From an uncultured Acidimicrobiales bacterium (GTDB lineage Bacteria > Actinomycetota > Geothermincolia > Fen-727 > Anoxymicrobiaceae), in the NCBI GenBank assembly GCA_964512645.1, contig CAZEJS010000001.1:825-64824 (forward strand): a stretch of 64,000 nucleotides of DNA, given 5' to 3'. Both the position numbers and the translations under genes were made by a program. The notes beneath the pieces are model-generated. The model worked only from the letters and a program-made list of their open reading frames with translations. It did not search any database and had not been told where the DNA came from. Below, piece after piece: positions 12,381 to 50,984 of this stretch. Position 1 is the first letter of the stretch; every line of letters begins with the position of its first letter.

Positions 12381-13979
12381 TTACAGGACCAGAAACTCCG
12401 CGGATTCTATGCCTTCCCGCGACCTCAGGTCTTGCAACACTTCCTCGCTCAGCGGGACGTCCAGGTTGAGCCCCATGCCGGCCACACCGCCAATGGACCT
12501 GCGCCCTACCTGCAAACCGCTTATGTTTATGTCACGCTCGCCCAGCACCGTCCCGACCTCTCCGATCATCCCCGGGCGGTCCTGGTAAGTGACGAACGCC
12601 ATGTACTGACTGGGTGCGATCACTATGTCGAAGTCGCGTACGTTGACGAACATCTCCTGGTTGACTCCTACCAGGGTGGCGCCGGCGGTCACCTTGGAGT
12701 CGCCCCCGCCGGCGGTCACACGTATCAAGTTCACGTAATCCAGGGACCTGTTGCTCCTGGCCTCCCTGACATTTATGCCGCGCTCGCCGGCGATAATGGG
12801 GGCATTCACGTAAGTGACGGCGTCCATGGAAACCTTCTCGAAAAACCCCTTGAGAAACGCTACCGTCAGCAGCGAGGTCTCGTGTTCGCTTATCTCGCCG
12901 AGGACCTCGAACTCGATCTCGCTCACCGCGCCTTTTATGAGGTTCACGAACAACCTCCCGAGCTTCTCGCACAGCGGCATGTAGGGCCTGAGCGTCTCCA
13001 CCACTTCCTTCTGGGGCATGGCGATGTTCACCGCCCCGCTGACGAAACCGCCGGTGAGCGCCGCGACAACCTGATCGGCGATCGCTACGCCCGCCTTGTA
13101 CTGCGCCTCCCGGGTGCTCGCCCCCAGGTGCGGGGTCACGATCACCTCCGGCATGCTGCACATCGGGTTGCCCTCTTCTGGGGGCTCGCACTCGAACACG
13201 TCGATGGCCGCGCCGGCGACCTTGCCGTTCGATATCGCCCTTGCCAGCGCGTGTTCGTCTATCACCCCGCCCCGCGAGACGTTGACGAACCTGACACCCG
13301 GTTTCACGATCTCGAATTGACTGTCGGACACCAGGTGGAGCGTGTCCTTGGTCCTGGGAACGTGGAGCGTCACGAAGTCCGCTTCCCGCAGCAGCTCTTC
13401 CATCGACGGCTTCATCTCGATGCCGATCGCATTCGCCCTCTGGGTCGAGATGTACGGGTCGAAGCCGATCAGCTTCATGCCGAAGGCGCCGGCCCGCTCC
13501 GCCACCAGCGCGCCTATTCTCCCGACACCGATGATCCCCAGCGTCTTGCCGTAAAGCTCGACACCCTGGTAGGCGGAGCGCTTCCACTCCCCCTTCTCCA
13601 TCGAGGCGTTGGCGGCGGGGATGTTGCGCGCGACGGCCATTAACATCGCCATGGTGTGCTCGGCCGCGGAGATGATGTTGCTCTCCGGAACGTTCGCCAC
13701 CATGATCCCTTTCATGGTCGCGGCTTCCACATCGATGTTGTCGACGCCTATGCCCGCGCGCCCGACAACCTTGAGCCGCCTGGCCCTGCAGATCGCCTCG
13801 GCGTCGACCATGGTGCCGCTGCGCACGACGAGCCCGTCGTACTCCTCGAGCTTTTCCAGGAATTCCTCCCTGGACATGGCGTCGTACGCGTCCACGAGGA
13901 AATGCTCTTCAAGCCTGGCCAGGCCCTCCGGAGAAATCTTCTCCGCCACGAGCACCCTGTATGGGGATTGTTCTCCCAT
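12381..13979 (-). CDS. serA: D-3-phosphoglycerate dehydrogenase with C-terminal ACT domain
   Basis: 532 aa. GxGxxG NAD-binding fold (GIIGVGRIGALVAERA), D-isomer 2-hydroxyacid dehydrogenase catalytic region, ACT domain at the C-terminus. Confidence 0.9.
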   Translation of the reverse strand: MGEQSPYRVLVAEKISPEGLARLEEHFLVDAYDAMSREEFLEKLEEYDGLVVRSGTMVDAEAICRARRLKVVGRAGIGVDNIDVEAATMKGIMVANVPESNIISAAEHTMAMLMAVARNIPAANASMEKGEWKRSAYQGVELYGKTLGIIGVGRIGALVAERAGAFGMKLIGFDPYISTQRANAIGIEMKPSMEELLREADFVTLHVPRTKDTLHLVSDSQFEIVKPGVRFVNVSRGGVIDEHALARAISNGKVAGAAIDVFECEPPEEGNPMCSMPEVIVTPHLGASTREAQYKAGVAIADQVVAALTGGFVSGAVNIAMPQKEVVETLRPYMPLCEKLGRLFVNLIKGAVSEIEFEVLGEISEHETSLLTVAFLKGFFEKVSMDAVTYVNAPIIAGERGINVREARSNRSLDYVNLIRVTAGGGDSKVTAGATLVGVNQEMFVNVRDFDIVIAPSQYMAFVTYQDRPGMIGEVGTVLGERDINISGLQVGRRSIGGVAGMGLNLDVPLSEEVLQDLRSREGIESAEFLVL

Positions 13980-14057: not shown

Positions 14058-15212
14058 CTATCCCGCGAGAACCCTGAGCGCGGCACCCACCCCCCTGCCG
14101 GGCTCCACGTCGCACCCAAGCCTGGCCAGCGTTATCTCCAGTGCGGCCACCTGGGTGACGATGTCATACTCGTCGAAGTAGCCGACGTGCCCCAGGCGGA
14201 ACACCTTCCCTTTGAGCCTGCCCTGACCGCCGGCGATGAAGATGCCGAAATCGTCCCGCATCTTCCTGGTGATGTCGCCGGCGCCGATACCCTCCGGCGC
14301 CCACACCGAGGTGGTTACGAACGCCCGGCTCCTGTCTCTGGCCAGGAAGCGCAACCCCAAAGCCTCGACGGCGGCCTGCGTCGCCCGGGCGAGCTTCTCA
14401 TGCCTGGCGAAGACCGCTTCCAGCCCTTCCTCGCGGATCATCGACAGGGCGGCGTCCAGCCCCTGGAGTAGCGTGATCGCCGGCGTGTACGGCGTCTCGG
14501 GAGGAACTTTCGACTGCGACTTGCGCGCGGCCTCGAAGGAGAAGTAGTAGGAAGGGCACTTCGCGGACTCCGCCGCTTCCCAGGCCTTTCCGCTAACCGC
14601 GCAGAAAGCAAGGCCGGGGGGAGTCATCAGCGCCTTCTGGGATCCGCTGATGCACAGGTCCACCCCCCACTCGTCCGTCCTCAAGTCGACGGCGCCCAGC
14701 CCGCTGATGGCGTCCACCAGAAACAACGCGTCGGTCCCGGCCACCACGCGCCCGAACGCCTCGACGTCGTTCACCACACCCGTGGACGTCTCGCTCTGGG
14801 TGAGCATCACGCACCTGGCGTCCGGGTTGGCTTCAAGGGCGCTCTCGAGCTGTTCCGGCCTGGCACACTCACCCCACTCGTACTCGACGGTAACGCAATC
14901 GAGGCCGAATGCCCGGCTTATCTCGACCAGCCTCTCGCCGAACTTGCCCCCGGCGAACGCTATGACCTTGTCTCCGGGCGAGAAGCAACTGGAGATAGCC
15001 CCCTCCATTGCGCCGGTTCCGCTGGAGGTGAACAGCAGCACCTCGTTGGAGGTCTGGTAGACGTACTTCAACCCGTCCAGGACCCTGGCCAGCAGCTCGC
15101 CGAACTCGGAGGACCTGTGGTGAATCATCTTCACCTGGGAGAGCCCGACCTTGGTGGGCACGGGCGTCGGACCCGGTGTGAAGATATAATCCTTCTTCAA
15201 CTCGACCTCCAT
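14058..15212 (-). CDS. serC: Class-V aminotransferase, probable phosphoserine aminotransferase (AGXT/archaeal SerC type)
   Basis: ORF 14058..15239; internal ATG 15212 (MEVELKKDYIFTPGPTPVP...). Class-V PLP fold (SGSQKALMTPPGLAF). Sits immediately upstream of serA. Confidence 0.75.
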   Translation of the reverse strand: MEVELKKDYIFTPGPTPVPTKVGLSQVKMIHHRSSEFGELLARVLDGLKYVYQTSNEVLLFTSSGTGAMEGAISSCFSPGDKVIAFAGGKFGERLVEISRAFGLDCVTVEYEWGECARPEQLESALEANPDARCVMLTQSETSTGVVNDVEAFGRVVAGTDALFLVDAISGLGAVDLRTDEWGVDLCISGSQKALMTPPGLAFCAVSGKAWEAAESAKCPSYYFSFEAARKSQSKVPPETPYTPAITLLQGLDAALSMIREEGLEAVFARHEKLARATQAAVEALGLRFLARDRSRAFVTTSVWAPEGIGAGDITRKMRDDFGIFIAGGQGRLKGKVFRLGHVGYFDEYDIVTQVAALEITLARLGCDVEPGRGVGAALRVLAG

Positions 15213-15284
15213 ATGTCGCGCCGCCCCGGGAGCGTGCAACCGCTCCCCGGACCGCTTCCGCCGGCGCCGGTGAAGCGCCCGGCA

Positions 15285-16277
15285 CTACTCGTTCAGCCAG
15301 CTCATCATCGAACGCAGCTTCTTCCCCAGGGGCTCGAGCGGATGCTCCGCCTCCGCCTTTCGCATCGTCGCGAACGACGCCCTGTTCGCCTGGTTCTCGA
15401 GCACCCACTCGGTGGCGAACCCGCCGCTCTGTATCTCCTCGAGTATCTTCTTCATCTCCCCCCGGACCTCCGGGCTGATGACCCTCGGGCCCCTGGTGAG
15501 GTCGCCGTATTCGGCGGTATCGCTCACCGCGGAGCGCATCCCGCTTATCCCGTGGCTGTATATGAGGTCAACGATCAGCTTCAGCTCGTGAAGACATTCG
15601 AAGTAGGCGACCTCGGGCTGGTACCCGGCCTCGACAAGGGTGTCGAAACCAGCCTTGATGAGCTCGGCGGTGCCTCCGCAAAGGACCACCTGTTCACCGA
15701 AGAGGTCCGTCTCCGTCTCTTCCTTGAACGTGGTCTCGAGGACGCCGGCCCTCGCGGCGCCGATCCCCGCGGCGTACGCCAGCCCCCTCTGCAGCGCCTT
15801 GCCGGTGTAGTCACGCTCGATGGCGATCAGCGCCGGGACCCCGCCGCCCTCGAGGAACACCTGCCGGACCATGCGGCCCGGGCCTTTCGGCGCCACCATG
15901 ATGACGTCCACGTCATCGGGCGGGATTATCTGGTTGAAGTGGATGTTGAACCCGTGGGCGAAGAACAGGGCGTTTCCTTCCTTCAGGCCGGGCTTAATGC
16001 ACTCCTCGTAAACGGCCGCCTGCCTGTCGTCCGGGATAAGGACCATGATAACGTCGGCTGCCGCGGCTGCTTCGGAGGGCGTGGCCACGGCCAGGCCGGC
16101 CTCCCCGGCCGTCCCTGCCGACGAGCTGCCCTCGCGGAGCCCAACCACCACGTCCATCCCGCTGTCCTTGAGGTTCAAGGCGTGGGCGTGGCCCTGGCTG
16201 CCGTATCCGATGACCGCTATCTTCCGGCCCTCGAGGATGCCTTTGTCCGCGTCTTTCTCGTAGTACATCGTCGCCAT
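15285..16277 (-). CDS. ilvC: Ketol-acid reductoisomerase
   Basis: 330 aa. N-terminal [21 protein letters not shown] Rossmann motif, class-I KARI length. Confidence 0.95.
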
Positions 16278-16340: not shown

Positions 16341-16814
16341 TTAACCGCGCGGCAGCGCTATCATGCCCGTCCGCACTACCTCCACGACGCCGTAGGGGCG
16401 CATCAGCTCCTCGAAGGCCCTCAGCTTCGAGGCCGGACCGGTGACCTCGACGCTCAGAGTCCCTTTTCCGACGTCCACGATCTTCCCCCTGAAGATCTCC
16501 ACTATTCCGGCGACGTCCGCCCTGTTCGAGGGCTCGGCCTTGACCTTGACCAGCACCAGCTCACGCTGGACGCTGTTCTCGTCAGGGAGGTCGATCACCT
16601 TGATCACGTTGATGAGCTTGTTGAGCTGCTTGTAGACCTGCTCAAGCGAGTGTTCCTCGACGTCCACTACCACGGTCATGCGGCTAATCTCCGGCTTGTC
16701 TGTCACCCCGACCGCCAGGCTGTCGATGTTGAATCCCCTGCGCGAAAACAGCCCCGCCACCCTCGCCAGGACGCCGGGCTTGTTCTCCACCAGAACCGAA
16801 AGGGTATGCTTCAC
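16341..16814 (-). CDS. ilvN: Acetolactate synthase small (regulatory) subunit
   Basis: C-terminal 157 codons of ORF 16341..18311. (V/M)KHTLSVLVENKPGVLARVAGLFSRRGFNIDSL is the canonical ACT-domain N-terminus. Putative GTG start lies 2 nt after the ilvB stop (translational coupling). Confidence 0.85.
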   Translation of the reverse strand: MKHTLSVLVENKPGVLARVAGLFSRRGFNIDSLAVGVTDKPEISRMTVVVDVEEHSLEQVYKQLNKLINVIKVIDLPDENSVQRELVLVKVKAEPSNRADVAGIVEIFRGKIVDVGKGTLSVEVTGPASKLRAFEELMRPYGVVEVVRTGMIALPRG

Positions 16815-16816: not shown

Positions 16817-18514
16817 CTAACCCCCTATCATGTCGTCGAGCGACGCCCCGGGCGCCACCATCGGGAACACGTTCTCCTCCTGCTCGACAATGAAATCTAT
16901 GAGGACCGGCACCTTTTTCTCCTTGAACGCCTCCCTGAGCGCCGGTTCGACCTCGTCCTTCCCGCTTACCCTGAGGCCTTTGGCCCCGTAGGCCTCGGCA
17001 AGCAGCACGAAGTCCGGGGACTCGCCGCGGCGCAGGTGCGTGTGAGAGTAACGCCTGTCGAAGAACATCTCCTGCCACTGCCTGACCATGCCGAGGTAAC
17101 CGTTGTTGATGACGGCTATGACGACCGGGATCTCCTCGAGAACGGCCGTGGCCAGCTCCTGGGAGTTCATCTGCATCGAGCCGTCCCCGGCGATGTTCAC
17201 CACCTGCGCGTCCGGCCTTCCTACCTTCGCCCCGATGGAGGCGGGGAGCCCGAACCCCATCGTGCCCAGACCCCCGGACGAGATGAACCGCCGCGGGCGG
17301 TCGGACTTGTAGAACTGGGCCGCCCACATCTGGTGCTGGCCCACGTCCGTGACCACGGTAGCCTTGCCCCTGGTCACCCGGTAGATCTCGTCGACGACAA
17401 ACTGCGGCCGCAGGGTTTCGCCGGCCGGCACCGTCAGCGGGTATTCTTTCTTCCACTCCCTTATCTGCCGGTGCCAGGGCTTGAGGTCGGGGTACGCGGC
17501 GTCCTGCGTTTTTTCTTTCAGAAAACCGAGCAGCTCCTTCAAGACCGCCCTGGCGTCGCCGACGATCGGAACGGTGACCGGCACGTTCTTGCCTATCTCC
17601 GCCGGGTCCACGTCGATGTGGATGATCTTCGCGTGAGGGGCGAACGCGTCCAGCCTCCCGGTGATGCGGTCGTCGAACCGCGCCCCGATCGCGATGATGA
17701 GGTCGGTCTCCATCATCACGTAATTGGCGTAGGACGTGCCGTGCATCCCCAGCATCCCCAGGGACAGCCTGGAGGTCTCCGGGTAGGCCCCCTTCGCCAT
17801 CAGGGTGGTGGTCACCGGCAGGTCGAGCATGTCCGCAAGCTCCCTCAGTTCGACCGACGCACCGGAGGAGACGACCCCGCCGCCGGCGTAGATGACCGGT
17901 CTCTTCGCCGCGGCCATGAGGCGCGCGGCCTCTTTGATCTGCCTGAGGTGGCCCTTCGTGGTTGGCTTGTACCCGGGAAGCGCCGCGCGCCTCTCCGGGT
18001 ACTTGAAGTCGAACACCGCCCGCTGCACGTCCGAGGGCAGGTCGATGAGGACCGCTCCCGGCCTGCCGGTGGAGGCTATGAGGAACGCCTCCTGCACAGT
18101 GGGGGCGATATCCCGGGGGTCTTTGATGAGGTAGTTGTGCTTTACCACGGGCAGGGTGATTCCGGTGGTGTCGGCCTCCTGGAACGCGTCGGTGCCTATC
18201 ACGTGAGTGGCGACCTGTCCGGAAATCGCCACAAGGGGGACCGAGTCCATGTTGGCGGTAGCGATGCCGGTCACCAGGTTGGTGGCCCCCGGCCCGCTGG
18301 TGGACATGCATACGCCGACCTTGCCGGTGGCTCGCGCGTATCCGTCGGCGGCGTGCGCGGCGCCCTGTTCGTGCCTGGTGAGCACGTGCCGTATCGGGAA
18401 GTCGAGCAGCACGTCATAAGTGGGCATTATGGAACCGCCCGGGTATCCGAAGATGACCTCGACGTCCTCCTTCTCCACGCTCTTCAGGAGCGCCGCCGCG
18501 CCGCTCATCTTCAT
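16817..18514 (-). CDS. ilvB: Acetolactate synthase large subunit
   Basis: ORF 16817..18529; ATG 18514 gives MKMSGAAALLKSVEKEDVEVIFGYPGG (typical AHAS N-terminus). TPP-binding GDGSMQMNSQEL motif. Overlaps ilvD stop region. Confidence 0.9.
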   Translation of the reverse strand: MKMSGAAALLKSVEKEDVEVIFGYPGGSIMPTYDVLLDFPIRHVLTRHEQGAAHAADGYARATGKVGVCMSTSGPGATNLVTGIATANMDSVPLVAISGQVATHVIGTDAFQEADTTGITLPVVKHNYLIKDPRDIAPTVQEAFLIASTGRPGAVLIDLPSDVQRAVFDFKYPERRAALPGYKPTTKGHLRQIKEAARLMAAAKRPVIYAGGGVVSSGASVELRELADMLDLPVTTTLMAKGAYPETSRLSLGMLGMHGTSYANYVMMETDLIIAIGARFDDRITGRLDAFAPHAKIIHIDVDPAEIGKNVPVTVPIVGDARAVLKELLGFLKEKTQDAAYPDLKPWHRQIREWKKEYPLTVPAGETLRPQFVVDEIYRVTRGKATVVTDVGQHQMWAAQFYKSDRPRRFISSGGLGTMGFGLPASIGAKVGRPDAQVVNIAGDGSMQMNSQELATAVLEEIPVVIAVINNGYLGMVRQWQEMFFDRRYSHTHLRRGESPDFVLLAEAYGAKGLRVSGKDEVEPALREAFKEKKVPVLIDFIVEQEENVFPMVAPGASLDDMIGG

Positions 18515-20196
18515 GTCGCCGACCTCCAATCCGCCTCGATGTTCTCCGGGTCCACTACCGCTCCCCCCGCGGCGCTGCCTACCATGCTCTCGTAAACCGA
18601 CAAGACTCCGCGCCTTGCCCCCGGAGCCGGTGTCTTACACGCTGCACGCCTTCTGTCGAGCTCGGCGTCGTCTACCAGGAGGTCCAGGCGCCTGGCGTCC
18701 ATGTCGACCTCGACGGTGTCACCGTCGCGCACCAGCGCTATCGGCCCGCCCGCGGCGGCTTCGGGCGAGACGTGCCCTATCGCGCCGCCCCTGGTCCCCC
18801 CGGAGAAACGTCCGTCGGTGACGAGCAGGACATCGTCGGCCAGCCCCATCCCGGCGATGGCCGAGGTGGGCATCAACATCTCGCGCATGCCGGGACCGCC
18901 TCTCGGGCCTTCGTACCTGATGACCACGACGTCTCCGGGCCGGATCGAGCCCGCCCTTATCGCGGCTATCCCGGCTTCCTCGCCGTCGAAGACGCGCGCC
19001 GGTCCGGCGTGGCGGCGCATCTTCTCTCCCACCGCGGCCTCTTTAACCACGGCGCCCCCGGGAGCGAGGTTCCCCCGCAGCACCGCGAGCCCTCCCCGGG
19101 GAGAGTACGGGTCGCCAGCCGGGCGGATGACGTCGGCGTCGAGGCTCCGGGCCCCGGAGATGTTCTCCCCAAGCGTCCGTCCAGACACGGTGGCCGCATC
19201 CAGGTCCAGCCCGCCGGTCGGAACGAGCTCCGCGAGAACGGCGCTCACCCCGCCGGCCTCGTGCAAGTCCTGCATATGGTACGGCCCCGAGGGGGCGATC
19301 CTGCAGAGGTTGGGCGTCGCCGAACAGATGCGATCCACGTGCTCCAGGTCGAAGAAGATGCCCAGTTCGCGCGCTATCGCCGGCAGGTGCAGCAGCGAGT
19401 TCGTCGAGCCGCCGATGGCCATGTCCAGGGCGAGCGCGTTGTCGAAGGCCCCCGGCGTGAGAATAGCGTCAGGTGTCGTTCCCGCTTCCACCAGGTCCAC
19501 CAGCGCCTGTCCGGTCTCCCTGGCGAGCCGGAGCCGGTCCGGGCTCACCGCCGGGATGGTGCCGTTGCCGGGGAGCGCGATCCCCAGCGCCTCGGAGAGG
19601 CAGTTCATGCTGTTGGCGGTGAAGAGTCCCGAGCAGCACCCCGGGCCCGGGCAGGCGCACCTCTCGTAGGCGCCGAGCTCTTCATCGCTCACCGCGGCGG
19701 AAGCCGCGGCTTCCATCACTTTTATCAAGTCCAGATCGGTCTCCCCCAGCCTGCCGGTTGCCATCGGCCCGCCGGAAACCATGGCCGCGGGGACGTTCAT
19801 CCTGGCAACGGCCATGAGCATCCCCGGCACCACCTTGTCGCAGTTGGGGATTATCAGCACGCCGTCGAGGGCGTGGGCCATGACCATGATCTCCACCGTG
19901 TAGCTTATTATCTCCCGGGACGGCAGGGAGTACTTCATCCCTTCGTGCCCCATGGCGATCCCGTCACAGACTCCGATGGTGTTGAAGAGCATCGGCGTCG
20001 CCCCGGCAAGCCTGATGCCCTCGCACGCGGCTTCGTTGACCTCGCCGAGGTGGACGTGCCCCGGGACGAGCCCGTTCGCCGACCCCGCCACCCCGATCAG
20101 CGGGCGGGCGATTTCCTCGTCGGTAAGGCCAAGAGCGCGAAGAAGCGAGCGCTGGCCCGCTTTCTCCCGTCCCACCTTGATTATGTCACTGCGCAT
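18511..20196 (-). CDS. ilvD: Dihydroxy-acid dehydratase
   Basis: ORF 18511..20205, ATG 20196 (MRSDIIKVGREKAGQRSLLRALG...). ILVD/EDD family motifs (CDGIAMG, Fe-S cysteines CDKVVPG). Confidence 0.9.
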   Translation of the reverse strand: MRSDIIKVGREKAGQRSLLRALGLTDEEIARPLIGVAGSANGLVPGHVHLGEVNEAACEGIRLAGATPMLFNTIGVCDGIAMGHEGMKYSLPSREIISYTVEIMVMAHALDGVLIIPNCDKVVPGMLMAVARMNVPAAMVSGGPMATGRLGETDLDLIKVMEAAASAAVSDEELGAYERCACPGPGCCSGLFTANSMNCLSEALGIALPGNGTIPAVSPDRLRLARETGQALVDLVEAGTTPDAILTPGAFDNALALDMAIGGSTNSLLHLPAIARELGIFFDLEHVDRICSATPNLCRIAPSGPYHMQDLHEAGGVSAVLAELVPTGGLDLDAATVSGRTLGENISGARSLDADVIRPAGDPYSPRGGLAVLRGNLAPGGAVVKEAAVGEKMRRHAGPARVFDGEEAGIAAIRAGSIRPGDVVVIRYEGPRGGPGMREMLMPTSAIAGMGLADDVLLVTDGRFSGGTRGGAIGHVSPEAAAGGPIALVRDGDTVEVDMDARRLDLLVDDAELDRRRAACKTPAPGARRGVLSVYESMVGSAAGGAVVDPENIEADWRSAT

Positions 20197-20254
20197 CCGT
20201 CTCACCCGCCGGCGTTGCGGCGCACGGGTCCCCGGCCTGCCCGGTCCCGTCTCG

Positions 20255-21268
20255 CTAGAGGTTCTCTATCGCTTTCACCATGGCGTCAGCCATCTCGCTC
20301 GTCTTCGCGTCCCCGCCGATGTCGTAGGTTACCGTCTTCCCCTCGCCGATAACCGCGGAGACGCCCGCGAGCACCCGTTCGGCTGCCTCGTCCTGTCCGA
20401 TATGCTTCAGCATCAGGTAACCGGAGAGTATCTGCGCGGTGGGGTCGACCTTGTCCAGCCCCGTATACTTTGGCGCGCTGCCGTGGGCCGGCTCGAAGAC
20501 GGCCAGGTCGCCGTCCCCCAGGTTCGAGCTGGGCGCGATACCCAGCCCGCCAATGAGTCCGGCGCAGAGGTCGCTGAGCATGTCGCCGTAAAGATTGGCC
20601 ATGACCATCACGTCGTACAGATGGGGTTTCTGCACGAGCTGCATGCACATGTTGTCGACTATCCGTTCCTCGAACTCCACATCCGGATACTCCTCGGACA
20701 TCCGCCTCCCTACCTCCAGGAAAAGGCCGTCGGTCATCTTCATGATGTTGGCTTTGTGAACAATGGTGAGTTTCCTGCGTTTGTTGCGCCTCACGTACTC
20801 GAAGGCGAACCTGATGATCCTCTCGGAGCCCTGGCGGGTTATGACCTTGATGGACTCGGCAACGTCCGGCGTGACCATATGCTCGATGCCAGCGTAGAGG
20901 TCTTCCATGTTCTCGCGAACGACCACGAGGTCTATGTCCGTGTAAGGCGTCTTCACGCCGGGGATGTAGAACGCGGGGCGCACGCACGCGTAAAGGTCCA
21001 GTTCCTTGCGAAGGGCCACGTTTACGCTGCGGAAGCCGCTTCCCACGGGGGTGGTGATGGGCCCCTTGTAGGCAACCCGGTTCTCCCGGATGTTGTCCAG
21101 CACCGCTTCCGGGAGAGGGGTGCCGTACTTCTCCATTACGTCCGCGCCCGCCTCCTGGCGGTCCCACTCCACCCGGGCGCCCGCGGCGTCCATCACACGG
21201 AGCGCCGCCTCGACGAGCGAGGGCCCCACGCCGTCGCCGGGTATCAGGGTTACTCTTCTCCTGGTCAT
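20255..21268 (-). CDS. NAD-IDH-like beta-decarboxylating dehydrogenase (isocitrate/homoisocitrate/3-methylmalate dehydrogenase family)
   Basis: ORF 20255..21274 begins on GTG; ATG 21268 is preceded by [40 protein letters not shown] is near-identical in pattern to NAD-IDH subunits ([31 protein letters not shown]). Paralogous to the leuB at 7922..8986. Confidence 0.8.
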
Positions 21269-21292
21269 TTTCACCTTTCTCCGATCGGTCGT

Positions 21293-21787
21293 TCACTCAA
21301 CGGCAAGACGCCCGTGCTTCTTCATGTACTCCACCAGGCCGCCCTCGGAAAGGATGTCCAGCATCACCCCCGGGAGGGGAGGCGACTCGATCGTCACGTC
21401 TTTCGTCAGGTTCAGGATGACGCCGTTCTCCAGGTCGACCTCCAGGGTGTCCCCGTCGCCGATCCCCGACGTGTCGCACACAAGCGCGGGCAGCCCGTTG
21501 TTGATAGAGTTCCGGAAGTAGATCCTGGCGAACGACTCCGCCAGGACCGCCGCCACCCCCGCGCATTTGAGCGCCAGGGGAGCCTGTTCCCGGGAGGACC
21601 CGCAGCCGAAGTTCTTTCCGGCCACGATGAAGTCCCCCTCCTTGAGCCTCTTCACGAAATCCGGGTCGAGGTCCTCCATCACGTGGCAGGCGAGCTCGTC
21701 CATGTCCAGCGTCTTGAATTTGTGCCGGCCGGAGATGATGTAGTCGGTGTTGACGTCGTCTTCGAACCTGTGCGCTTCTCCTCGCAT
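21293..21787 (-). CDS. Second LeuD-like aconitase-family small subunit
   Basis: 164 aa, GCGSSREQAPLALK motif. Start is 1 nt after the stop of the upstream large subunit. Confidence 0.85.
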   Translation of the reverse strand: MRGEAHRFEDDVNTDYIISGRHKFKTLDMDELACHVMEDLDPDFVKRLKEGDFIVAGKNFGCGSSREQAPLALKCAGVAAVLAESFARIYFRNSINNGLPALVCDTSGIGDGDTLEVDLENGVILNLTKDVTIESPPLPGVMLDILSEGGLVEYMKKHGRLAVE

Positions 21788-21788
21788 G

Positions 21789-23042
21789 TCAGACGACCTT
21801 TCTCGGGTCGGTTATCTCCCCGGTCAAACAGCTCGCCGCCACCGTCGCCGGGGAAGCGAGGTAAATGAAGGCTTCGGGGTTGCCCATCCGCCCCTTGAAG
21901 TTGCGGTTGGCGGTCGAGATGACGTTCTCGCCGTCGGCGGGAACCCCCTGGTGCGTGCCCACGCAGGACGCGCAGCCCGGACACATCACAGACGCGCCCG
22001 CTTCAGTGAAGACCTCTATCAGGCCTTCACGCAGGGCCGCCAGCATGACCTCTCTCGAGGCGGGAGCGACTATCATCCTCACTCCCCTGGCCACGCTCTT
22101 GCCCCTGACTATCGAGGCCGCCGCCCGAAGGTCGTCGAGCCTCCCGTTGGTACAGGTGCCTATGAGCCCCTCGGCAATCTCGGTGCCCTCCACTTCGCCC
22201 ACCGGGCAGACGTTGTCGACGGCATGCGGCCGGGCTACCTGGGGCTCCAGGTCGCTTATGTCGTACCGGCGCTCTTCGACGTAGACCGCGTCGGCGTCGG
22301 GGTACACCGGCGTCACGGGCCCAGGAGCGCGCCCCTTCAGAAAAGCGAGCGTCTTCTCGTCCGCTTCCATGAGCCCCGCCTTCGCTCCCATCTCCACCGC
22401 CAGGTTGCTGATGGTCAGGCGGCCGTCGAGACTCAGCTCGGAGATCGCAGAACCGCCTATCTCCAGCGCCATGTAAGTAGCGCCGTCGGCGGTCACGTCA
22501 CCCACCATCATCAGCGCGATGTCCTTGGAGTGGACCCCCCGGGGCAGCTTACCCTCCACCGCCACCTTCATCGTCTCGGGCACCCGGAACCAGAGCGAGC
22601 CCGATAGGAGCCCCGCGGCCAGGTCGGTCGAACCCACGCCGGTGGCGAACGCGTTGACCGCCCCGTACGTGCAGGTGTGAGAGTCCGCTCCTATCACCAG
22701 GTTGCCCGGAAGAGCGTGCCCCCTGTCGAGCATCACCTGGTGGCACACGCCCTCACCGACGTCGTTCAACTCGAGCCCGTGCCTTTCCGCGAAGGCGCGC
22801 ATCAGCGCGTGCAGCTCGGAAATCGACCTCAGCGGGCTGGGGGCGCTGTGATCTATGCAGAACGCCGCCCTGCCGGCCATGGATATCCCCGCGCCTCCCA
22901 TGCCCTCGAAGGAGCGTATCGCCAGCGGCGCCGTGCCGTCCTGGGCCATCACGTAGTCGAGCTCGGCGATCACAATGTCACCAGCGGCGGCGTCCCGGCC
23001 GGAGTGCGCCGAGAAGATTTTCTCGGAAATCGTCTTTCCCAC
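21789..23042 (-). CDS. Second LeuC-like aconitase-family large subunit
   Basis: ORF 21789..23066. GTG at 23042 is preceded by GGAGG and gives (M)GKTISEKIFSAHSG, the canonical LeuC N-terminus. GADSHTCTYGAVNAFATGVGSTD, GTCTNGR, CPGCASCVG cysteine motifs. Confidence 0.85.
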   Translation of the reverse strand: MGKTISEKIFSAHSGRDAAAGDIVIAELDYVMAQDGTAPLAIRSFEGMGGAGISMAGRAAFCIDHSAPSPLRSISELHALMRAFAERHGLELNDVGEGVCHQVMLDRGHALPGNLVIGADSHTCTYGAVNAFATGVGSTDLAAGLLSGSLWFRVPETMKVAVEGKLPRGVHSKDIALMMVGDVTADGATYMALEIGGSAISELSLDGRLTISNLAVEMGAKAGLMEADEKTLAFLKGRAPGPVTPVYPDADAVYVEERRYDISDLEPQVARPHAVDNVCPVGEVEGTEIAEGLIGTCTNGRLDDLRAAASIVRGKSVARGVRMIVAPASREVMLAALREGLIEVFTEAGASVMCPGCASCVGTHQGVPADGENVISTANRNFKGRMGNPEAFIYLASPATVAASCLTGEITDPRKVV

Positions 23043-23116
23043 CGTGATATTTCCTCCAATAATCACTGTTCCCCCCTAAGGCTTCACGCCTTTGGTGGGG
23101 AACTGTTCGAAAGACC

Positions 23117-23144
23117 ATTTTATTTCTTTTGCCGCTCTTTTGAA
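23117..23144 (-). promoter_or_regulatory. Candidate sigma70-like promoter (TTCAAA-16-TAAAAT) heading the leuC2...cimA supercluster
   Basis: In the only AT-rich stretch of the 114-bp gap upstream of leuC2. Read on the minus strand: ttcaaaagagcggcaaaagaaaTAAAATggtc. Sequence match only. Confidence 0.35.
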
Positions 23145-23180: not shown

Positions 23181-24260
23181 TCACGGGCCCCACGACAGGG
23201 GGGGCGACCAGCTCCCCGGACCCAGTTCCACCTTCCGGCTGAACCTGCCTCCCGCACCGTACACGAACACCGAGTCGCGTGATCCCGCCGCGGGGTCGGC
23301 TTCGAACAGCAACGCGAACCGTGACCCCGAAGGCGCGGCGCTGATGTCAGTGAACCGGCCGCCGGAAGGAGGCTCGACGGCAAGCCGCAGGCGGGCCGCG
23401 CCACCGGTGCCTGTCACGAAGTAAACGGCGGTCGGCCTCGAGGGCCCCGGCCTCTCAACCAGGACCGCGAGTACGTCCTCGCCTGTCCAGGCCATTGACC
23501 TCACCCGGCCTTCCACCACCTCGCCGTCGGCATCCCGCGTGCTGCCCGGCACCAGCACCGTCCTCTGCCGTATGGAGCTCTCGTTCCGGCCGGAGGCGAG
23601 ACCGGTCACTACCGTCGCTCCGCCTTTACGGGCATAGGCGAGCTTGCCGCTTACCGGCGAGAACGCCGCGCAGGTTACGAAATCGGGCGCCTGGACCTCT
23701 CCCCTGCCCTCCGGGCCTCGGAACGGAAGGTCCGATATCAGGCTGCTCTTGATGTCGATCTGCCGGAGCTTTCCGCCGGACAGGAACCAGATCTGGTTGT
23801 GCCTGGGAAGGAAGCCGAGCTGGCGGACCCGCGAATCGCCGGCCCGGACCGGTATGGTCCACTCCGCGTGCTGGCGCCCGCTGAACGCGCTCTTGCTCCG
23901 TATGCTGACTTCCTCGACCTTGCCGCCAGCCCTGCGGTACCAGCCCACGATCACCTCTTCGCGGCTCCCGGAGATTGCCCAGGAGGAGTACCCCTGAGAG
24001 CCGGCCGGGGCCGCTACGAACTCGCGAGAGGGTCCGCCCGACAGCGGCACCAGCCTTACCGCGCCGTTGTGACCGACCAGCGCCTCCGACGTCTTCACCG
24101 TCCCGGGGAGCAACCTGGGCACAAAGAACGCCGAGAGCGCCATGGCGGCCAGCATCACCGCGAGGTATTCGACCGTGCGACGCTGAGGGCGCCACCGCTT
24201 GTTCTTCTCGACGAACTTCTTCGCCTGCTCGTATCGCTGTTCGACAGGTGCATCGGGCAT
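23181..24260 (-). CDS. Membrane-anchored protein with a probable beta-propeller (TolB/PD40-like) ectodomain, function unknown
   Basis: 359 aa. Charged N-terminus, one TM helix (YLAVMLAAMALSAFFV), then a Gly/Ser/Arg-rich repeat-like soluble region. Confidence 0.6.
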   Translation of the reverse strand: MPDAPVEQRYEQAKKFVEKNKRWRPQRRTVEYLAVMLAAMALSAFFVPRLLPGTVKTSEALVGHNGAVRLVPLSGGPSREFVAAPAGSQGYSSWAISGSREEVIVGWYRRAGGKVEEVSIRSKSAFSGRQHAEWTIPVRAGDSRVRQLGFLPRHNQIWFLSGGKLRQIDIKSSLISDLPFRGPEGRGEVQAPDFVTCAAFSPVSGKLAYARKGGATVVTGLASGRNESSIRQRTVLVPGSTRDADGEVVEGRVRSMAWTGEDVLAVLVERPGPSRPTAVYFVTGTGGAARLRLAVEPPSGGRFTDISAAPSGSRFALLFEADPAAGSRDSVFVYGAGGRFSRKVELGPGSWSPPLSWGP

Positions 24261-24328
24261 GTGTCAATTATACAGGCAGCCGCGGGAGGCCGGCCCGTCG
24301 GTGCGCCGCCGGGCGGCGCACGATGGGT

Positions 24329-24357
24329 TTGAATTAGATATTTCCATTTGATATATT
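24329..24357 (+). promoter_or_regulatory. Candidate sigma70-like promoter for gcvH (TTGAAT-17-TATATT)
   Basis: tttGAATtagatatttccatttgaTATATTcc lies 24 nt upstream of the AGGAGGGAG RBS and ATG 24381, in an AT-rich island. Confidence 0.45.
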
Positions 24358-24380
24358 CCTCTGGGACTACTAGGAGGGAG

Positions 24381-24770
24381 ATGGCCATGGAAAACTTTCC
24401 TGAGGATCTGAAGTATCACAAAGAGCACATGTGGGTGCGCGGCGACGGCACCATTGGGATAACTTTCTACGCCCAGGACCAGCTGGGCGAGATCGTCTTC
24501 ATCGAAGTGCCCGAGCCCGGGGCCGACGTCGAGGCCGGGGAAGGCTTCGGGGAGATCGAGTCGCGCAAGTCGGTCTCGGACCTCATCGCCCCGGTGACGG
24601 GCACCATCAAAGAGGTCAACGCCGAAGTGCAGGACGCCCCCGAGATCATCAACGAAGACCCCTACGGCAAGGGATGGGTCGCCATTATCGACGTGGCCGA
24701 CGCCGCGGAGATCGAAGGCCTCATGACAGCGGCCGAGTACAACGAGCTCGTTTCCGGAGAGGAAGGCTGA
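24381..24770 (+). CDS. gcvH: Glycine cleavage system H protein (lipoyl carrier)
   Basis: ORF 24348..24770. ATG 24381 follows AGGAGGGAG. MAMENFPEDLKYHKEHMWVRGDGT...GEIESRKSVSDLIAPVTG contains the lipoyl-lysine context (ESVK-like SRKS). Confidence 0.9.
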   Translation: MAMENFPEDLKYHKEHMWVRGDGTIGITFYAQDQLGEIVFIEVPEPGADVEAGEGFGEIESRKSVSDLIAPVTGTIKEVNAEVQDAPEIINEDPYGKGWVAIIDVADAAEIEGLMTAAEYNELVSGEEG

Positions 24771-24790: not shown

Positions 24791-24822
24791 AAAGGCGGGC
24801 GGCGACGCCCGCCTTTTTCTTT
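24791..24822. terminator. Rho-independent terminator after gcvH, possibly bidirectional (gatB converges)
   Basis: GGCGGGCG-gcga-CGCCCGCC stem followed by TTTTTCTTT on plus. The minus strand gives the same hairpin followed by UUUGGUUUGUU. Confidence 0.7.
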
Positions 24823-24914: not shown

Positions 24915-26354
24915 TCAGGTGAGCTTCCTGCGGATGAGGTCTGAGGCCATCTCCGGGTTGGCTTTGCCGCGGGTCTTCTTCATGACCTGGCCCATCAGGA
25001 ACTTCAAAGCCTGCTCTTTGCCCTCGCGCAGGTCGCCGGCGGCCTCGGGGTTCTCGGAGATGACCTCTTCAACAACGGATTCGATCTCCGAGCCGTCGGA
25101 TATCTGGGCCAGGCCCTTCCCTTCGACTATCTCCTCGGGTCCCCTGCCGGAGTCGAACGCCTCGCGCAACACATCCTTGGCCATCTTCCCGGAGATCACC
25201 CCCCGGGTTACCAGGGACACCAGCTCCCCGAGTCCCCGGGGCTTGAGCGGGCAGGCGCTGATGGGAACGACGGCGTCCTTGAGCATCGCCGAGAGGTCCC
25301 CGGCGATCCACTTCGCGAGCGCCTTCGGGTCCTGGCCTGTCGACACCGCTTCCTCGAAATAGTCGGCCATCGCCTTCTCGCCGGTCAGCATCGAAGCGAT
25401 CTCGGGCTGGAGCCCGTACTCGGTCTCGAAGCGCCTGAGCCTCTCGGCGGGCAGTTCGGGCATCCTGGCCCTTAAGGATTCGAGCCACTCGCGGTCGGGT
25501 TCGATAGGCACGAGGTCGGGCTCCGGAAAATAGCGGTAGTCGAACGCCTCTTCCTTGCTGCGCAGGGGGCTGGTCATTCCCGCGTCGTCGTCCCAGTGTC
25601 TCGTCTCCTGCACGATCCGCTCGCCCCGGTCGAGCGCGGAGCGCTGGCGCCCCTCCTCGTAGATCAGCGCGCGATACAGCGCGCGGAACGAGTTCATGTT
25701 CTTGATCTCCACCTTGGTACCCGCGACCCCATCGACGGAGATAGAGATATTAGCGTCGCACCGCAGCGAGCCTTCCTCCATCTTGCAGTCGCTGATGTCC
25801 AGGTACTCGATAGTCGCACGCAGCAACTGCAGGAAGACACGCGCTTCCTCCGGGCTCCTCAGGTCGGGCTCGGTCACAATCTCCGCAAGCGGGATCCCGG
25901 CGCGATTGAAATCCTCGAGGCTGTGTTCCGCCCCATGGATGCGGCCGCTGGCGCCGACGTGGATGCTCTTGCCGGTATCCTCCTCGAGGTGGACGCGGGT
26001 GATCCCCACCCGGCGGCGGTAATCCCCCATCTCCACGTCGAGCCATCCGTCGTGGCTCAGGGGGCGGTCGTACTGCGATATCTGGAAGTGCTTGGGCATG
26101 TCGGGGTAGAAGTAGTTCTTGCGGTGGAATATCGAGCGGGCGGCTATCTCACAGTTCAACGCCAGCGCCAGCAGGATGGTGTCCCCCACCGCGCGGCGGT
26201 TCGTGACGGGAAGCGAGCCGGGGTGGCCCAGGCAGACCGGGCAGGTCTTGGTGTTGGGGTCACCGCCGAAAGACGCCTCGCAGCCGCAGAACATCTTCGA
26301 CCTGGTGCTGAGCTCGGTGTGTATCTCCAACCCGATTATCGTCTCTCGGTCCAT
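24915..26354 (-). CDS. gatB: Asp/Glu-tRNA(Asn/Gln) amidotransferase subunit B
   Basis: 479 aa, MDRETIIGLEIHTELSTRSKMFCGC... canonical GatB N-terminus. Confidence 0.95.
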   Translation of the reverse strand: MDRETIIGLEIHTELSTRSKMFCGCEASFGGDPNTKTCPVCLGHPGSLPVTNRRAVGDTILLALALNCEIAARSIFHRKNYFYPDMPKHFQISQYDRPLSHDGWLDVEMGDYRRRVGITRVHLEEDTGKSIHVGASGRIHGAEHSLEDFNRAGIPLAEIVTEPDLRSPEEARVFLQLLRATIEYLDISDCKMEEGSLRCDANISISVDGVAGTKVEIKNMNSFRALYRALIYEEGRQRSALDRGERIVQETRHWDDDAGMTSPLRSKEEAFDYRYFPEPDLVPIEPDREWLESLRARMPELPAERLRRFETEYGLQPEIASMLTGEKAMADYFEEAVSTGQDPKALAKWIAGDLSAMLKDAVVPISACPLKPRGLGELVSLVTRGVISGKMAKDVLREAFDSGRGPEEIVEGKGLAQISDGSEIESVVEEVISENPEAAGDLREGKEQALKFLMGQVMKKTRGKANPEMASDLIRRKLT

Positions 26355-26366: not shown

Positions 26367-27836
26367 TCAGGCCGCCTCGAGGCCCGTGGGACGCGGGTCG
26401 AAGCCGACCGCGCGCTCGAGGGCCAGGGCGGCGTCCAGTATCTTCCGTTCCGAAAGGGGCGGGCCCATGAGCTGCAAGCCGACGGGCAGCCCTCCGGCGA
26501 GCCCGCAGGGCAGGCTCAGCGCCGGGATTCCGGCCAGATTGACCGGTATCGTGCATTTGTCGGACAGGTACATGGTCAGCGGGTCATCGACCTTCTCCCC
26601 GAGCTTGAACGCGGTTGTCGGGGACGTCGGGGATACCAGCAGGTCGTACTGGTCGAACGCCCGCCCGCAATCCCTGATGATAAGGGTGCGGACCTTCTGC
26701 GCTTTGGCGTAGTACTCGTCGTAGCAGCCCGCCGACAGCGCGTAAGTGCCGAGCATGATCCGGCGCTTGACCTCGGGGCCGAAGCCCCGGGCCCGCGTCT
26801 CGTCGTACATCTCCCATACGTCGCCGAACTCCCCCTCCGCGCGGAAGCCGTACCTCACCCCGTCGAACCTCGCGAGGTTGCTCGAGGCCTCGGCCGGGGC
26901 GATGAGGTAGAAGGAGGAGAGTCCGTACTCGAAGCTTGGGAGCGACACCTCGTCGCAGGACACCCCCATCCCCTCGAGGGCGTCCATGGCCTCCCGGACA
27001 CGCTGTAGCACCTCCGGGTCTATCCCCTCGCCGGACAACTCCTTGACGATGGCCACCTTCATCCCCTGGACCTCTCCGGTGAGCCCGTCGAGGTAATCGC
27101 GGGCGGGCTCTTCGATGGAGGTGGAGTCGCAAGGATCGTGACCCGCTATGACCCCCAGGAGGGCGGCGCAGTCGGTCACGTTCAGCGCCATCGGGCCGAC
27201 CTGGTCAAGAGAAGAGGCGAACGCCACCAGGCCATACCTCGAGACGAGCCCGTAGGTCGGCTTCATCCCCACTATTCCGCACAGCGAGGCCGGCTGGCGT
27301 ATGCTCCCCCCGGTGTCGGAACCCAGCGCCCAGGGGGCCTCACCCGCGGACACCGCCGCGGCGGAGCCTCCGCTGGAACCCCCGGGGACCCTCTCCAGGT
27401 CCCAGGGATTGGCGGTGTTCCCGAAAAAGGAGTTCTCGGTCGAAGAGCCCATGGCGAACTCGTCCATGTTCGTCTTTCCCAGCACAACCATGCCCGAACC
27501 CTTCACCCGCTCCACGACGGTCGCGTCCCATGTCGGCACGTAGTTCGCGAGCATGCGCGAAGCGCAGGTGGTACGTATGCCCTTCGTGGAGAGCGCGTCC
27601 TTGACGGCGATGGGAACGCCGGCGAACCGGCCCGCGTCCCGGCCCCGGGCGATATCCTCGTCTATCCGCCTGGCCTCCCTGAGGGCGCCTTCCGGGTCGG
27701 TGTTGATATAGGCCCCGACAACCTCCTCCAGGGACTCGATCCGCCGGAGGAACGCTTCGGTGACCTCCTGCGCCGAGACCTCCCGCCTGTCGATCAGCCG
27801 CGCCGTCTCGACGGCGCTTTTGTAGAGCATCTCCAT
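26367..27836 (-). CDS. gatA: Glutamyl-tRNA(Gln) amidotransferase subunit A
   Basis: 489 aa, amidase signature (GGSSGGSAAAVSAG). Confidence 0.95.
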   Translation of the reverse strand: MEMLYKSAVETARLIDRREVSAQEVTEAFLRRIESLEEVVGAYINTDPEGALREARRIDEDIARGRDAGRFAGVPIAVKDALSTKGIRTTCASRMLANYVPTWDATVVERVKGSGMVVLGKTNMDEFAMGSSTENSFFGNTANPWDLERVPGGSSGGSAAAVSAGEAPWALGSDTGGSIRQPASLCGIVGMKPTYGLVSRYGLVAFASSLDQVGPMALNVTDCAALLGVIAGHDPCDSTSIEEPARDYLDGLTGEVQGMKVAIVKELSGEGIDPEVLQRVREAMDALEGMGVSCDEVSLPSFEYGLSSFYLIAPAEASSNLARFDGVRYGFRAEGEFGDVWEMYDETRARGFGPEVKRRIMLGTYALSAGCYDEYYAKAQKVRTLIIRDCGRAFDQYDLLVSPTSPTTAFKLGEKVDDPLTMYLSDKCTIPVNLAGIPALSLPCGLAGGLPVGLQLMGPPLSERKILDAALALERAVGFDPRPTGLEAA

Positions 27837-27845: not shown

Positions 27846-28130
27846 CTATACGATCCTCGGCACCTTGAAGGCGCCGCCCTCCGCGTCAGGCGCGCCGCCG
27901 GTGGCCTCCTCTACCGGAAGTGACGGGCGCACCTCGTCCTCACGGAATACGTTGACCACCGGCAGGGCATGACTGGTGGGCGGCACGCCCGCCGTGTCCA
28001 GTTCGCCGATGACCCTCGCATGCTCCAGTATCCCGGAGAGCTGGTCCCGGTAGGTCTCCTTTTCTTCGTCGTCCAGCCTGAGCCTCGCCAGCCTGGCCAC
28101 GTGTTCAACATCCTCGACGGTTATCGCCAT
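27846..28130 (-). CDS. gatC: Glutamyl-tRNA(Gln) amidotransferase subunit C
   Basis: 94 aa, MAITVEDVEHVARLARLRLDDEE typical GatC. Confidence 0.9.
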   Translation of the reverse strand: MAITVEDVEHVARLARLRLDDEEKETYRDQLSGILEHARVIGELDTAGVPPTSHALPVVNVFREDEVRPSLPVEEATGGAPDAEGGAFKVPRIV

Positions 28131-28154: not shown

Positions 28155-30865
<2,711 letters not shown>

Positions 30866-34368: not shown

Positions 34369-34407
34369 GAGGCCCGCTGACCACCGTTGCCCTACGGGAG
34401 GTTCGAG

Positions 34408-38601: not shown

Positions 38602-38679
38602 TCGAAGAGCATCTCGATCATGCCGCAGTCGAGCGAGGCATCCCCTTTTCCTTCGATAGCGGCACGAACCCCGGGCGTC

Positions 38680-38713
38680 CGTAATAAAACGAGGGCGGAC
38701 AACGCCCGCCCTC
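38680..38713 (-). terminator. Rho-independent terminator ending the Wood-Ljungdahl operon after acsE (convergent junction with the fdh block)
   Basis: GAGGGCGG-acaacgc-CCGCCCTC stem. The U-rich tract GUUUUAUUA follows only on the minus-strand reading. Confidence 0.65.
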
Positions 38714-38777
38714 GCCGTCTTCAATCAGAGCACGGGCGCCGGCGGGACGCTGCAAAGTCCCCGCACCCGCATTCGCT

Positions 38778-39659: not shown

Positions 39660-39712
39660 CTCTACCTCCTTGCCATCTCCCTGTTCATACGTCCGTCGTA
39701 TGCGCCATCGCG

Positions 39713-40543: not shown

Positions 40544-40573
40544 CCGGTCCCTGGAGCGAGGCTCCGACAGCAT

Positions 40574-41626: not shown

Positions 41627-41718
41627 AGGGCCCGGCCCCTTCCCGCCTTCTGACCACTCTGCATCACCAGATGTCTGCTATGCGCAAAGGGGTCTGACCC
41701 CGACTGCGATCAGTGCCC

Positions 41719-50974: not shown

Positions 50975-50984
50975 TCCATACCTC

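Follow-up and report, generated by a model that had tools for sequence, protein, structure and literature searches.

A probable two-subunit aconitase and isocitrate dehydrogenase module at the head of a branched-chain amino acid gene string in an uncultured Geothermincolia bacterium

Introduction

An operon of Dehalococcoides mccartyi is among the closest described parallels to the genes treated here: it comprises genes for putative large and small subunits of aconitase, an NADP-isocitrate dehydrogenase (DET0450), malate dehydrogenase and fumarase (PMC4720418). The isocitrate dehydrogenase (IDH) of this operon was annotated as NAD-dependent, but it was measured to be 65-fold more active with NADP (PMC4720418). 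Here we describe three adjacent genes in a 64,000-nt stretch of DNA (the window; positions 825–64,824 of contig CAZEJS010000001.1, assembly GCA_964512645.1) that has a G+C content of 65% and whose nearest protein relatives come from uncultured Actinomycetota (Candidatus Geothermincolia, Anoxymicrobium and Anoxymicrobiaceae). The three genes lie on the minus strand, encode a LeuC-type large subunit (21789–23042), a LeuD-type small subunit (21293–21787) and a short dehydrogenase (20255–21274), and are the first genes of a string that continues with branched-chain amino acid and serine genes. Judged from its sequences and from its relatives in other genomes, this trio most probably encodes a two-subunit aconitase and an NADP-type IDH that would make 2-oxoglutarate for glutamate.

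In both Dehalococcoides and the window, two-subunit aconitase-family genes (in Dehalococcoides presumably DET0448 and DET0449) are followed by a gene for a short IDH that pipelines call NAD-dependent, a separate leuCD-leuB set is located in a leucine operon ending with a second LeuA-family synthase gene, and the setting is that of an anaerobe with an anabolic, incomplete branch of the tricarboxylic acid (TCA) cycle. However, the Dehalococcoides module is joined to malate dehydrogenase and fumarase genes, whereas that of the window is joined to ilv, ser and leu genes. This comparison is one of gene types and order, not of sequence, and the Dehalococcoides IDH has kinetics while the coenzyme of the window IDH is predicted only.

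By sequence, the nearest systems are the clusters of Carboxydothermus and the Syntrophomonadaceae, which share with the window orthologous large and small subunits, an upstream ligA-gatCAB frame, a distinctive large-subunit Gln and a small-subunit KFKT loop; in Carboxydothermus the IDH is orthologous as well. They differ in having a Re-citrate-synthase-like gene directly upstream and no ilv genes downstream, and Thermosyntropha and Candidatus Syntrophocurvum alkaliphilum have a long IDH of the Escherichia coli type instead of the short one. Homoaconitase and isopropylmalate (IPM)/citramalate isomerase of Methanocaldococcus jannaschii (which we take to be MJ1003/MJ1271 and MJ0499/MJ1277; structures 4kp2/2pkp and 4kp1/3vba, respectively, were used here) have the same two-subunit fold, cysteine ligands and GSSRE motif, and either large subunit scores approximately 372–380 bits. 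In contrast to the window proteins, they have a YLRT or YLVY loop, carry a large-subunit His in both cases and fall in a separate clade, and the partner dehydrogenase in the window is an IDH rather than AksF or LeuB. Clostridial clusters (C. kluyveri, C. thermocellum) likewise have a Re-citrate synthase beside an aconitase in an anaerobe, but the aconitases there are single chains of about 640 aa, and the C. kluyveri Re-citrate synthase, CKL_0973, belongs to a different branch, 27–29% identical to the synthase found beside relatives of the window pair.

Old paralogues of the leucine enzymes

A preliminary description of this locus placed a paralogous aconitase-family pair plus a dehydrogenase at the head of an operon that also contains canonical leuA-leuC-leuD-leuB and cimA, and the open reading frames, Pfam matches and equivalog scores bear this out. 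The large-subunit reading frame extends over 21789–23066, and its likeliest start is a GTG at 23042, nine bases after GGAGGA (23057–23052), which gives a protein of 417 aa, the same length as its database relatives (Pfam Aconitase, PF00330, 1.4e-95). The small subunit has 164 aa (Aconitase_C, PF00694, 2.8e-19), and the dehydrogenase, in which the peptide quoted in the preliminary description is located, has 339 aa, or 337 aa from the ATG at 21268 (Iso_dh, 1.4e-103).

All three proteins pass broad subfamily models only and miss every equivalog cut-off for LeuC, LeuD, homoaconitase and IDH. The large subunit passes NF001614 (550 bits; cut-off 385) and TIGR01343 (543 bits), but not the LeuC equivalog TIGR02083 (436.9 versus 610.65) or the homoaconitase model NF040615 (438.2 versus 550), and its match to PRK07229, a model of single-chain aconitases, scores 344 bits and covers the first 415 positions of that model. 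The small subunit passes TIGR02087 (201 bits; cut-off 109) but fails the HacB equivalogs; further homoaconitase models that are missed are NF040625 and NF040604 (191.6 and 176.1 versus 230) and NF010629 (142.7 versus 229). The small subunit also misses the LeuD equivalog TIGR02084 (176.6 versus 245.85), although this test is non-discriminating, as the canonical LeuD of the window misses it too.

The large subunit, the small subunit and the dehydrogenase are 43.5, 45 and 36% identical to the LeuC, LeuD and LeuB proteins of the same window, values that rule out a recent duplication and also rule out simple redundancy. Phylogenetic placement, proposed as a check in the preliminary description, was carried out for the LeuC- and LeuD-type subunits by neighbor joining with 300 bootstraps, a distance rather than a likelihood method. 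A distinct clade (94% bootstrap support) contains the large subunit, while the canonical LeuC of the window groups with LeuC proteins of leucine operons (100%); support for the corresponding small-subunit clade is only 64%. The clade is also distinct from M. jannaschii homoaconitase. It turns out that the two sets, at 36–45% identity and in different old clades, are not the duplication inside one operon that they had been taken for.

Active-site residues of the two subunits

The GTCTNG and CPGCASC segments of the large subunit align with the cluster-ligand cysteines of pig aconitase and of the M. jannaschii enzymes, and GCGSSREQ, which includes the GSSRE catalytic-serine motif, is invariant in the small-subunit clade. 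The clade is set apart by two further features. First, all 16 sampled members have [AG]QDGT in the large subunit (AQDGT in the window), and the Gln of this motif aligns with Gln72 of pig aconitase (AMQDATAQ). In mitochondrial aconitase, Gln72 and Arg580 are ligands of the substrate carboxylates. The same column reads THDGT in M. jannaschii homoaconitase, HDIT in its IPM isomerase, and in bacterial LeuC proteins, including that of the window, it belongs to ANDIT.

Second, the small subunit has an unusual recognition loop. Work on the M. jannaschii enzymes has established that, in the LeuCD fold, the main determinant of specificity is a small-subunit loop (PMC7308503). This loop is SGRHKFKTLD in the trio protein, compared with PGPY-LRTTD in M. 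jannaschii homoaconitase, PARYLVYTK in the IPM/citramalate isomerase of the same organism and PATYLVSND in the local LeuD. The basic loop GxxKFKTLD is thus one residue longer than that of homoaconitase or IPM isomerase, and G..KFKTLD, with its two lysines, is invariant in 15 clade members whose overall identity is 60–84%. Because a loop that in other enzymes is turned towards a methyl or isopropyl group here carries two lysines, an acidic substrate side chain can be argued for.

Loops that are also one residue longer occur in sister groups, namely YKYRTQ with a large-subunit His, YKARTLD with Gln, and YTYT with His (loci L015 and L054 from Nitrososphaeria, L006 from Thermoprotei, and L020, L022, L052 and L074). 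These proteins are also annotated as LeuCD and may represent further specificities, perhaps including the homoaconitase of archaeal lysine synthesis.

The dehydrogenase and its coenzyme

The dehydrogenase scores 411 bits against the IDH structure PDB 6lky and 347 bits against human IDH3 alpha, compared with 262 bits against Thermus homoisocitrate dehydrogenase and 165–227 bits against 3-isopropylmalate dehydrogenases, which upholds the earlier statement that it is nearer to isocitrate dehydrogenases than to the LeuB type. Among family models, too, the highest-scoring ones are those of IDH. In the alignment with E. coli Icd, the residues S113, N115 (in RSVNV), R119, R129, R153, Y160, K230, D283, D307 and D311 are all retained. 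Ser113 and Asn115 of Icd hold the gamma-carboxylate of isocitrate. Among the loci collected in this study, dehydrogenases adjoining homoaconitase-type (YLRT) small subunits read RSVL at this place, without the Asn, and the LeuB segment is unrelated.

At the coenzyme positions the protein reads HGSAPKYTG, compared with HGTAPKYAG in E. coli, so that K344 and Y345 are conserved; Y391 is conserved too, unlike R395. In 6lky and IDH3 alpha, both NAD-dependent, the corresponding positions hold Asp-Ile (APDIA). Because K344 and Y345 are kept where the NAD-dependent structures have Asp-Ile, the dehydrogenase is predicted to prefer NADP over NAD. The third gene is therefore probably an IDH gene, and probably an NADP-linked one, although relatives are named 'isocitrate/isopropylmalate dehydrogenase family protein' by NCBI and 'isocitrate dehydrogenase (NAD+)' by JGI. 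Of the two readings offered in the preliminary description, the one in which a LeuCD-type aconitase substitute plus an IDH supplies 2-oxoglutarate agrees with the residues, the phylogeny and the gene neighborhoods, except that NAD had been named as the coenzyme where K344 and Y345 predict NADP.

The other reading took the trio for a dedicated citramalate/citraconate isomerase plus 3-methylmalate dehydrogenase, which would be set aside for isoleucine synthesis through CimA and be distinct from the leucine enzymes. A cimA gene does lie in the same operon, the fold is the LeuCD fold, and pipelines name relatives '3-isopropylmalate/(R)-2-methylmalate dehydratase'. However, the dehydrogenase carries the isocitrate-specific Ser113/Asn115 pair in a segment that resembles neither LeuB type, the small-subunit loop is basic (RHKFKTLD), whereas IPM/citramalate isomerases have a neutral or hydrophobic loop (YLV/YLN), and AQDGT in the large subunit replaces the Asn or His followed by D-I/L-T of those enzymes. 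The cimA gene is located at the opposite end of the operon, 13 kb from the trio and beside the canonical leuCD-leuB-ilvE, and one enzyme would suffice for both substrates, since the database entry of the M. jannaschii IPM isomerase describes it as an isomerase of both isopropylmalate and citramalate. Furthermore, the orthologous trios of Carboxydothermus and Thermosyntropha adjoin a Re-citrate-synthase-like gene and no cimA. The residues, the phylogeny and the neighborhoods thus contradict a dedicated citramalate set, which we consider highly improbable.

Gene neighborhoods in other genomes

The strongest line of evidence for an aconitase–IDH module is the company that its genes keep elsewhere. 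Scanning metagenome contigs for the loop motif yielded 120 loci, with small subunits 53–87% identical to that of the window. An IDH-family gene lies directly downstream in 58 of the 74 loci with at least 900 bp of downstream sequence (49 of the short type and nine of the E. coli type), a NifV-like synthase gene lies directly upstream in 26 of the 51 loci with upstream room, and gatA or gatB is found further upstream in 15 of 24; these loci are not independent lineages, and the counts overstate the number of events. Every adjoining dehydrogenase that is readable through the region has the Ser-x-Asn signature. A malate dehydrogenase gene beside the IDH gene, the arrangement of Dehalococcoides, occurs in none of the 120 loci.

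In Thermosyntropha lipolytica the gene order is gatCAB, NifV-like synthase, large subunit (65% identical to that of the window), small subunit and NADP-IDH, the last being a bona fide NADP-IDH (PRK07006, 793 bits; cut-off 490). In Carboxydothermus hydrogenoformans Z-2901 it is ligA, gatCAB, NifV-like synthase, large subunit, small subunit and short IDH, and each member of the trio is 64% identical between this organism and the window. A ligA-gatCAB frame precedes the orthologous cluster in C. hydrogenoformans, Ca. Syntrophocurvum and the window alike. The Carboxydothermus genome paper contains no discussion of the TCA branch.

The NifV-like neighbors are 69–75% identical to HM1_2993 of Heliomicrobium, compared with 43–46% to Heliomicrobium NifV (two copies compared). 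Deletion and complementation have pointed to HM1_2993 as the Heliomicrobium Re-citrate synthase of the oxidative branch; the authors of that work reported that the mutants were hard to grow without yeast extract, and they looked into a glutamine requirement. The occurrence of two IDH types and of a Re-citrate-synthase-like gene beside a single hydro-lyase clade points to the sequence citrate, isocitrate, 2-oxoglutarate.

It is against these neighborhoods that a homoaconitase and homoisocitrate dehydrogenase pair, leading to 2-oxoadipate in alpha-aminoadipate lysine synthesis or in 2-oxoacid elongation, has to be weighed; the NifV-like neighbor seen elsewhere would then be a homocitrate synthase. 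Those neighbors do pass the TIGR02660 homocitrate synthase cut-off, TIGR01343, named 'homoaconitate hydratase family', is among the top matches of the large subunit, the small subunit scores 158.7 bits against M. jannaschii homoaconitase and 153.8 against IPM isomerase, and the loop ends in K-T where that of homoaconitase ends in R-T. In addition, Thermus homoisocitrate dehydrogenase also turns over isocitrate. Nevertheless, no homoaconitase equivalog model is passed, M. jannaschii homoaconitase lies outside the clade, Gln stands where homoaconitase has His, and the loop differs from YLRT in both length and sequence. The adjoining dehydrogenases have the Asn115 that is absent from methanogen-type dehydrogenases, and nine loci have an E. 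coli-type IDH, the one that was scored (T. lipolytica) being far above its equivalog cut-off. The NifV-like neighbors are much nearer to the genetically supported Re-citrate synthase than to NifV, and no lysW, lysX, lysY or lysZ was found among the Pfam-annotated neighbors in the five contexts examined. A homoaconitase role for the trio is accordingly improbable.

The link to branched-chain amino acid genes is also found beyond the window. In relatives from Geothermincolia, ilvD-ilvB-ilvN-ilvC-aminotransferase-serA-leuA comes immediately after the trio, and an ilv gene follows the IDH gene in 10 of 37 informative metagenome loci, including lineages only 52–54% identical, so that the fusion of trio and ilv genes is recurrent. 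The arrangement had been called unusual, but the three genes stay together as a unit in different phyla, and in these 10 loci they are again joined to ilv genes.

Other neighbors recur as well. In some lineages (L003, L004, L108, L125 and L189) glyA takes the place of the IDH gene after the small-subunit gene, and a methylenetetrahydrofolate reductase gene follows the IDH gene in Thermosyntropha and Syntrophocurvum (L081 and L210). These neighbors form a recurrent tie of the module to one-carbon metabolism.

Proposed role of the module

According to our proposal, the large and small subunits would make up a heterodimeric [4Fe-4S] hydro-lyase with the LeuCD fold and aconitase activity, converting citrate to isocitrate by way of cis-aconitate, and the short IDH would oxidatively decarboxylate isocitrate to 2-oxoglutarate, probably with NADP. 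The trio would thus take citrate to 2-oxoglutarate within an oxidative TCA branch that is incomplete, and its product would feed glutamate synthesis. The canonical LeuCD and LeuB proteins, encoded near leuA, ilvE and cimA, would work in two pathways, leucine synthesis and the formation of isoleucine by way of citramalate. Aminotransferases of the IlvE and class-V kinds usually take their amino group from glutamate. As IlvE and the class-V aminotransferase of the serine pathway would consume glutamate and release 2-oxoglutarate, we infer a physiological rationale that would explain a co-transcription of the trio with ilv, ser and leu genes.

Several observations weigh against this proposal, as does the dependence among the metagenome loci mentioned above. 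In the literature we found no report of an assayed two-subunit aconitase, nor of aconitase activity for this clade, and a 2021 classification of the aconitase superfamily includes no heterodimeric true aconitase: of its eight subfamilies (AcnA, AcnB, mAcn, cAcn/IRP, AcnD, HACN, IPMI and AcnX), only HACN, IPMI and AcnX type II have separate subunits. The dehydrogenase misses the curated IDH equivalogs PRK08997 (414.8 versus 510), TIGR00175 (389.6 versus 432.4) and PRK09222 (380.8 versus 509). Arg580 of pig aconitase lies within GPWLKFRGHLD, which resembles GRHKFKTLD, but the equivalence of a loop lysine with Arg580 finds no support in hhalign, where the clade profile and domain 4 of pig aconitase align over the GSSRE core only; the KFK/KFR likeness is only a lead. 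Finally, Pfam and NCBIfam scans found no citrate synthase of either type in the window, and tblastn with HM1_2993 matches only leuA and cimA. The usual slot of the Re-citrate-synthase-like gene (5585–6727 in comparison locus L209 and 7581–8750 in L081) corresponds to 23181–24770 of the window and is filled by unrelated genes, namely a gene for a 359-aa conserved protein without a Pfam or NCBIfam match (23181–24260, minus strand) and gcvH (24348–24770, plus strand), the latter called as GCV_H on contigs with an identical small subunit.

The unrelated genes in this slot and the absence of a citrate synthase from the window would also suit tricarboxylate enzymes with another role, whether in the reductive direction, on 2-methylcitrate or another substituted tricarboxylate, or as a second, partly redundant set beside a canonical aconitase and IDH encoded elsewhere. 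NADP-IDH is reversible, which agrees with the first of these. However, the trio has been kept as a unit, 64% identical to that of genomes with an adjacent synthase gene, it is placed among biosynthetic genes, and it is not evident why a Wood–Ljungdahl organism would need a citrate branch running in the reductive direction. We regard such other roles as unlikely.

The two-subunit aconitase module is at present known by annotation and operon logic, not biochemically, and the window adds a member from the Actinomycetota to it. A broader view, on which we are evenly divided, is that the clade marked by the Gln and the GxxKFKTLD loop is a true heterodimeric aconitase lineage outside the eight-subfamily picture and the 'missing aconitase' of many anaerobes, and that in Geothermincolia the module lost its adjacent Re-citrate synthase and was wired into a branched-chain and serine operon, citrate being supplied by an unrecognized synthase or the module having a second role. 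The clade is present in Carboxydothermus, Syntrophomonadaceae, Desulfofundulus, Geothermincolia and many uncultured lineages.

Public names of clade members are almost always those of IPM dehydratase, although at least one submitted genome has 'Aconitate hydratase small subunit'. Pipelines label the genes of the clade as leucine enzymes plus an NAD-dependent IDH, and metabolic reconstructions of anaerobes and uncultured genomes consequently tend to show a gap at aconitase and an interrupted path to glutamate; a genome of the Chloroflexi has been described as having a Re-citrate synthase yet no aconitate hydratase. Two sequence marks, the Gln of the large-subunit [AG]QDGT and the small-subunit GxxKFKTLD loop, could mend the annotation. 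They are also targets for mutagenesis of how the LeuCD fold switches among isopropyl, carboxyethyl and carboxymethyl substrates.

Organization of the locus

The trio heads a string of 16 co-directional minus-strand genes that runs from 23042 to 5415 with intergenic gaps of at most approximately 83 nt. Translations and family scans identify ilvD (18511–20205), ilvB (16817–18529), ilvN (about 16341–16814), ilvC (15285–16277), a class-V aminotransferase gene (14058–15239) adjoining serA (12381–13979), leuA (10857–12365), ilvE (7037–7912) and cimA (5415–6983; TIGR00977, 753.6 bits versus a cut-off of 450), all on the minus strand. Between leuA and ilvE, on the same strand, lie the canonical leuC (9517–10773), which passes the TIGR02083 equivalog with 628.8 bits (cut-off 610.65), leuD (9017–9520), which scores 210.0 bits against TIGR02084, under the cut-off of 245.85, and leuB (7922–8986; PRK03437, 534.5 bits, cut-off 393). 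The G+C content of the trio and the G+C content of its third codon positions match those of neighboring genes; a recent horizontal insertion of the trio was considered, and base composition gives no sign of it.

Two features of the canonical leucine enzymes deserve mention. The LeuD loop, ATYLVSND, resembles that of the methanogen IPM/citramalate isomerase (YLVY) and is unlike the common bacterial ARYLNTSD; it might be related to the dual leucine/citramalate role expected with cimA in the operon. LeuB reads GGSAPKYTG at the coenzyme positions (K344/Y345 of E. coli Icd), a sequence shared by many PRK03437-type LeuB proteins of the loci collected here, and this type of LeuB might use NADP.

Upstream of the large-subunit gene, a consensus scan found a promoter-like site on the minus strand, TTCAAA-16 nt-TAAAAT (23117–23144), a pattern match only, with nine of 12 positions matching; the end coordinate given in the preliminary description, 23144, coincides with this site. 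The trio and the ilv, ser, leu and cimA genes probably share one transcription unit, judging from gene spacing and from the terminator scan, which found no convincing minus-strand terminator between the dehydrogenase gene and cimA. In this arrangement, the supply of 2-oxoglutarate would share a probable transcription unit with branched-chain amino acid and serine synthesis. The whole window was also scanned for a T-box or other RNA leader, and no Rfam family was matched at gathering thresholds; thus there is no evidence for a regulatory RNA dividing the trio from the ilv genes.

The upstream frame, identified by Pfam and translation, consists of ligA (28155–30182), gatC (27846–28130), gatA (26367–27836) and gatB (24915–26354), all on the minus strand. 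After gatB, the terminator scan found a strong terminator-like hairpin on the minus strand (24791–24816; 11 pairs, eight of them G-C), which would split the gatCAB unit from that of the trio.

Other features of the window

The rest of the window is a Wood–Ljungdahl cluster, with genes for CO dehydrogenase/acetyl-CoA synthase (CODH/ACS), folD, fhs, metF, a corrinoid activator and formate dehydrogenase, and the organism is therefore an anaerobe of the kind that runs an incomplete, biosynthetic TCA branch. In the literature that we found on Wood–Ljungdahl Actinobacteria, the TCA branch is undiscussed.

A complete-looking Wood–Ljungdahl block extends over 37213–56268. It encodes an MvhD/FlpD-domain protein, a pterin-binding protein, MetF with a C-terminal partner protein, both CdhD-family (CO dehydrogenase/acetyl-CoA synthase delta subunit) proteins, ACS, CODH, FolD, a cyclodeaminase-like protein, a CooC-like ATPase, the corrinoid activator RACo and Fhs.

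The catalytic subunit of formate dehydrogenase (34387–37185, plus strand) appears as two open reading frames separated by an in-frame TGA at 35542–35544, within VDHCARL*HAPTVAGL. Formate dehydrogenases usually carry their selenocysteine at this site, and the two frames therefore probably represent one selenoprotein gene rather than two genes.

An HcyBio protein (Pfam, 3.4e-152), which is involved in sulfur incorporation in homocysteine biosynthesis, is encoded at 59406–60773 on the minus strand, with a small downstream open reading frame at 58998–59405 on the same strand. It presumably represents a methanogen-type route to homocysteine, here in an actinobacterial genome.

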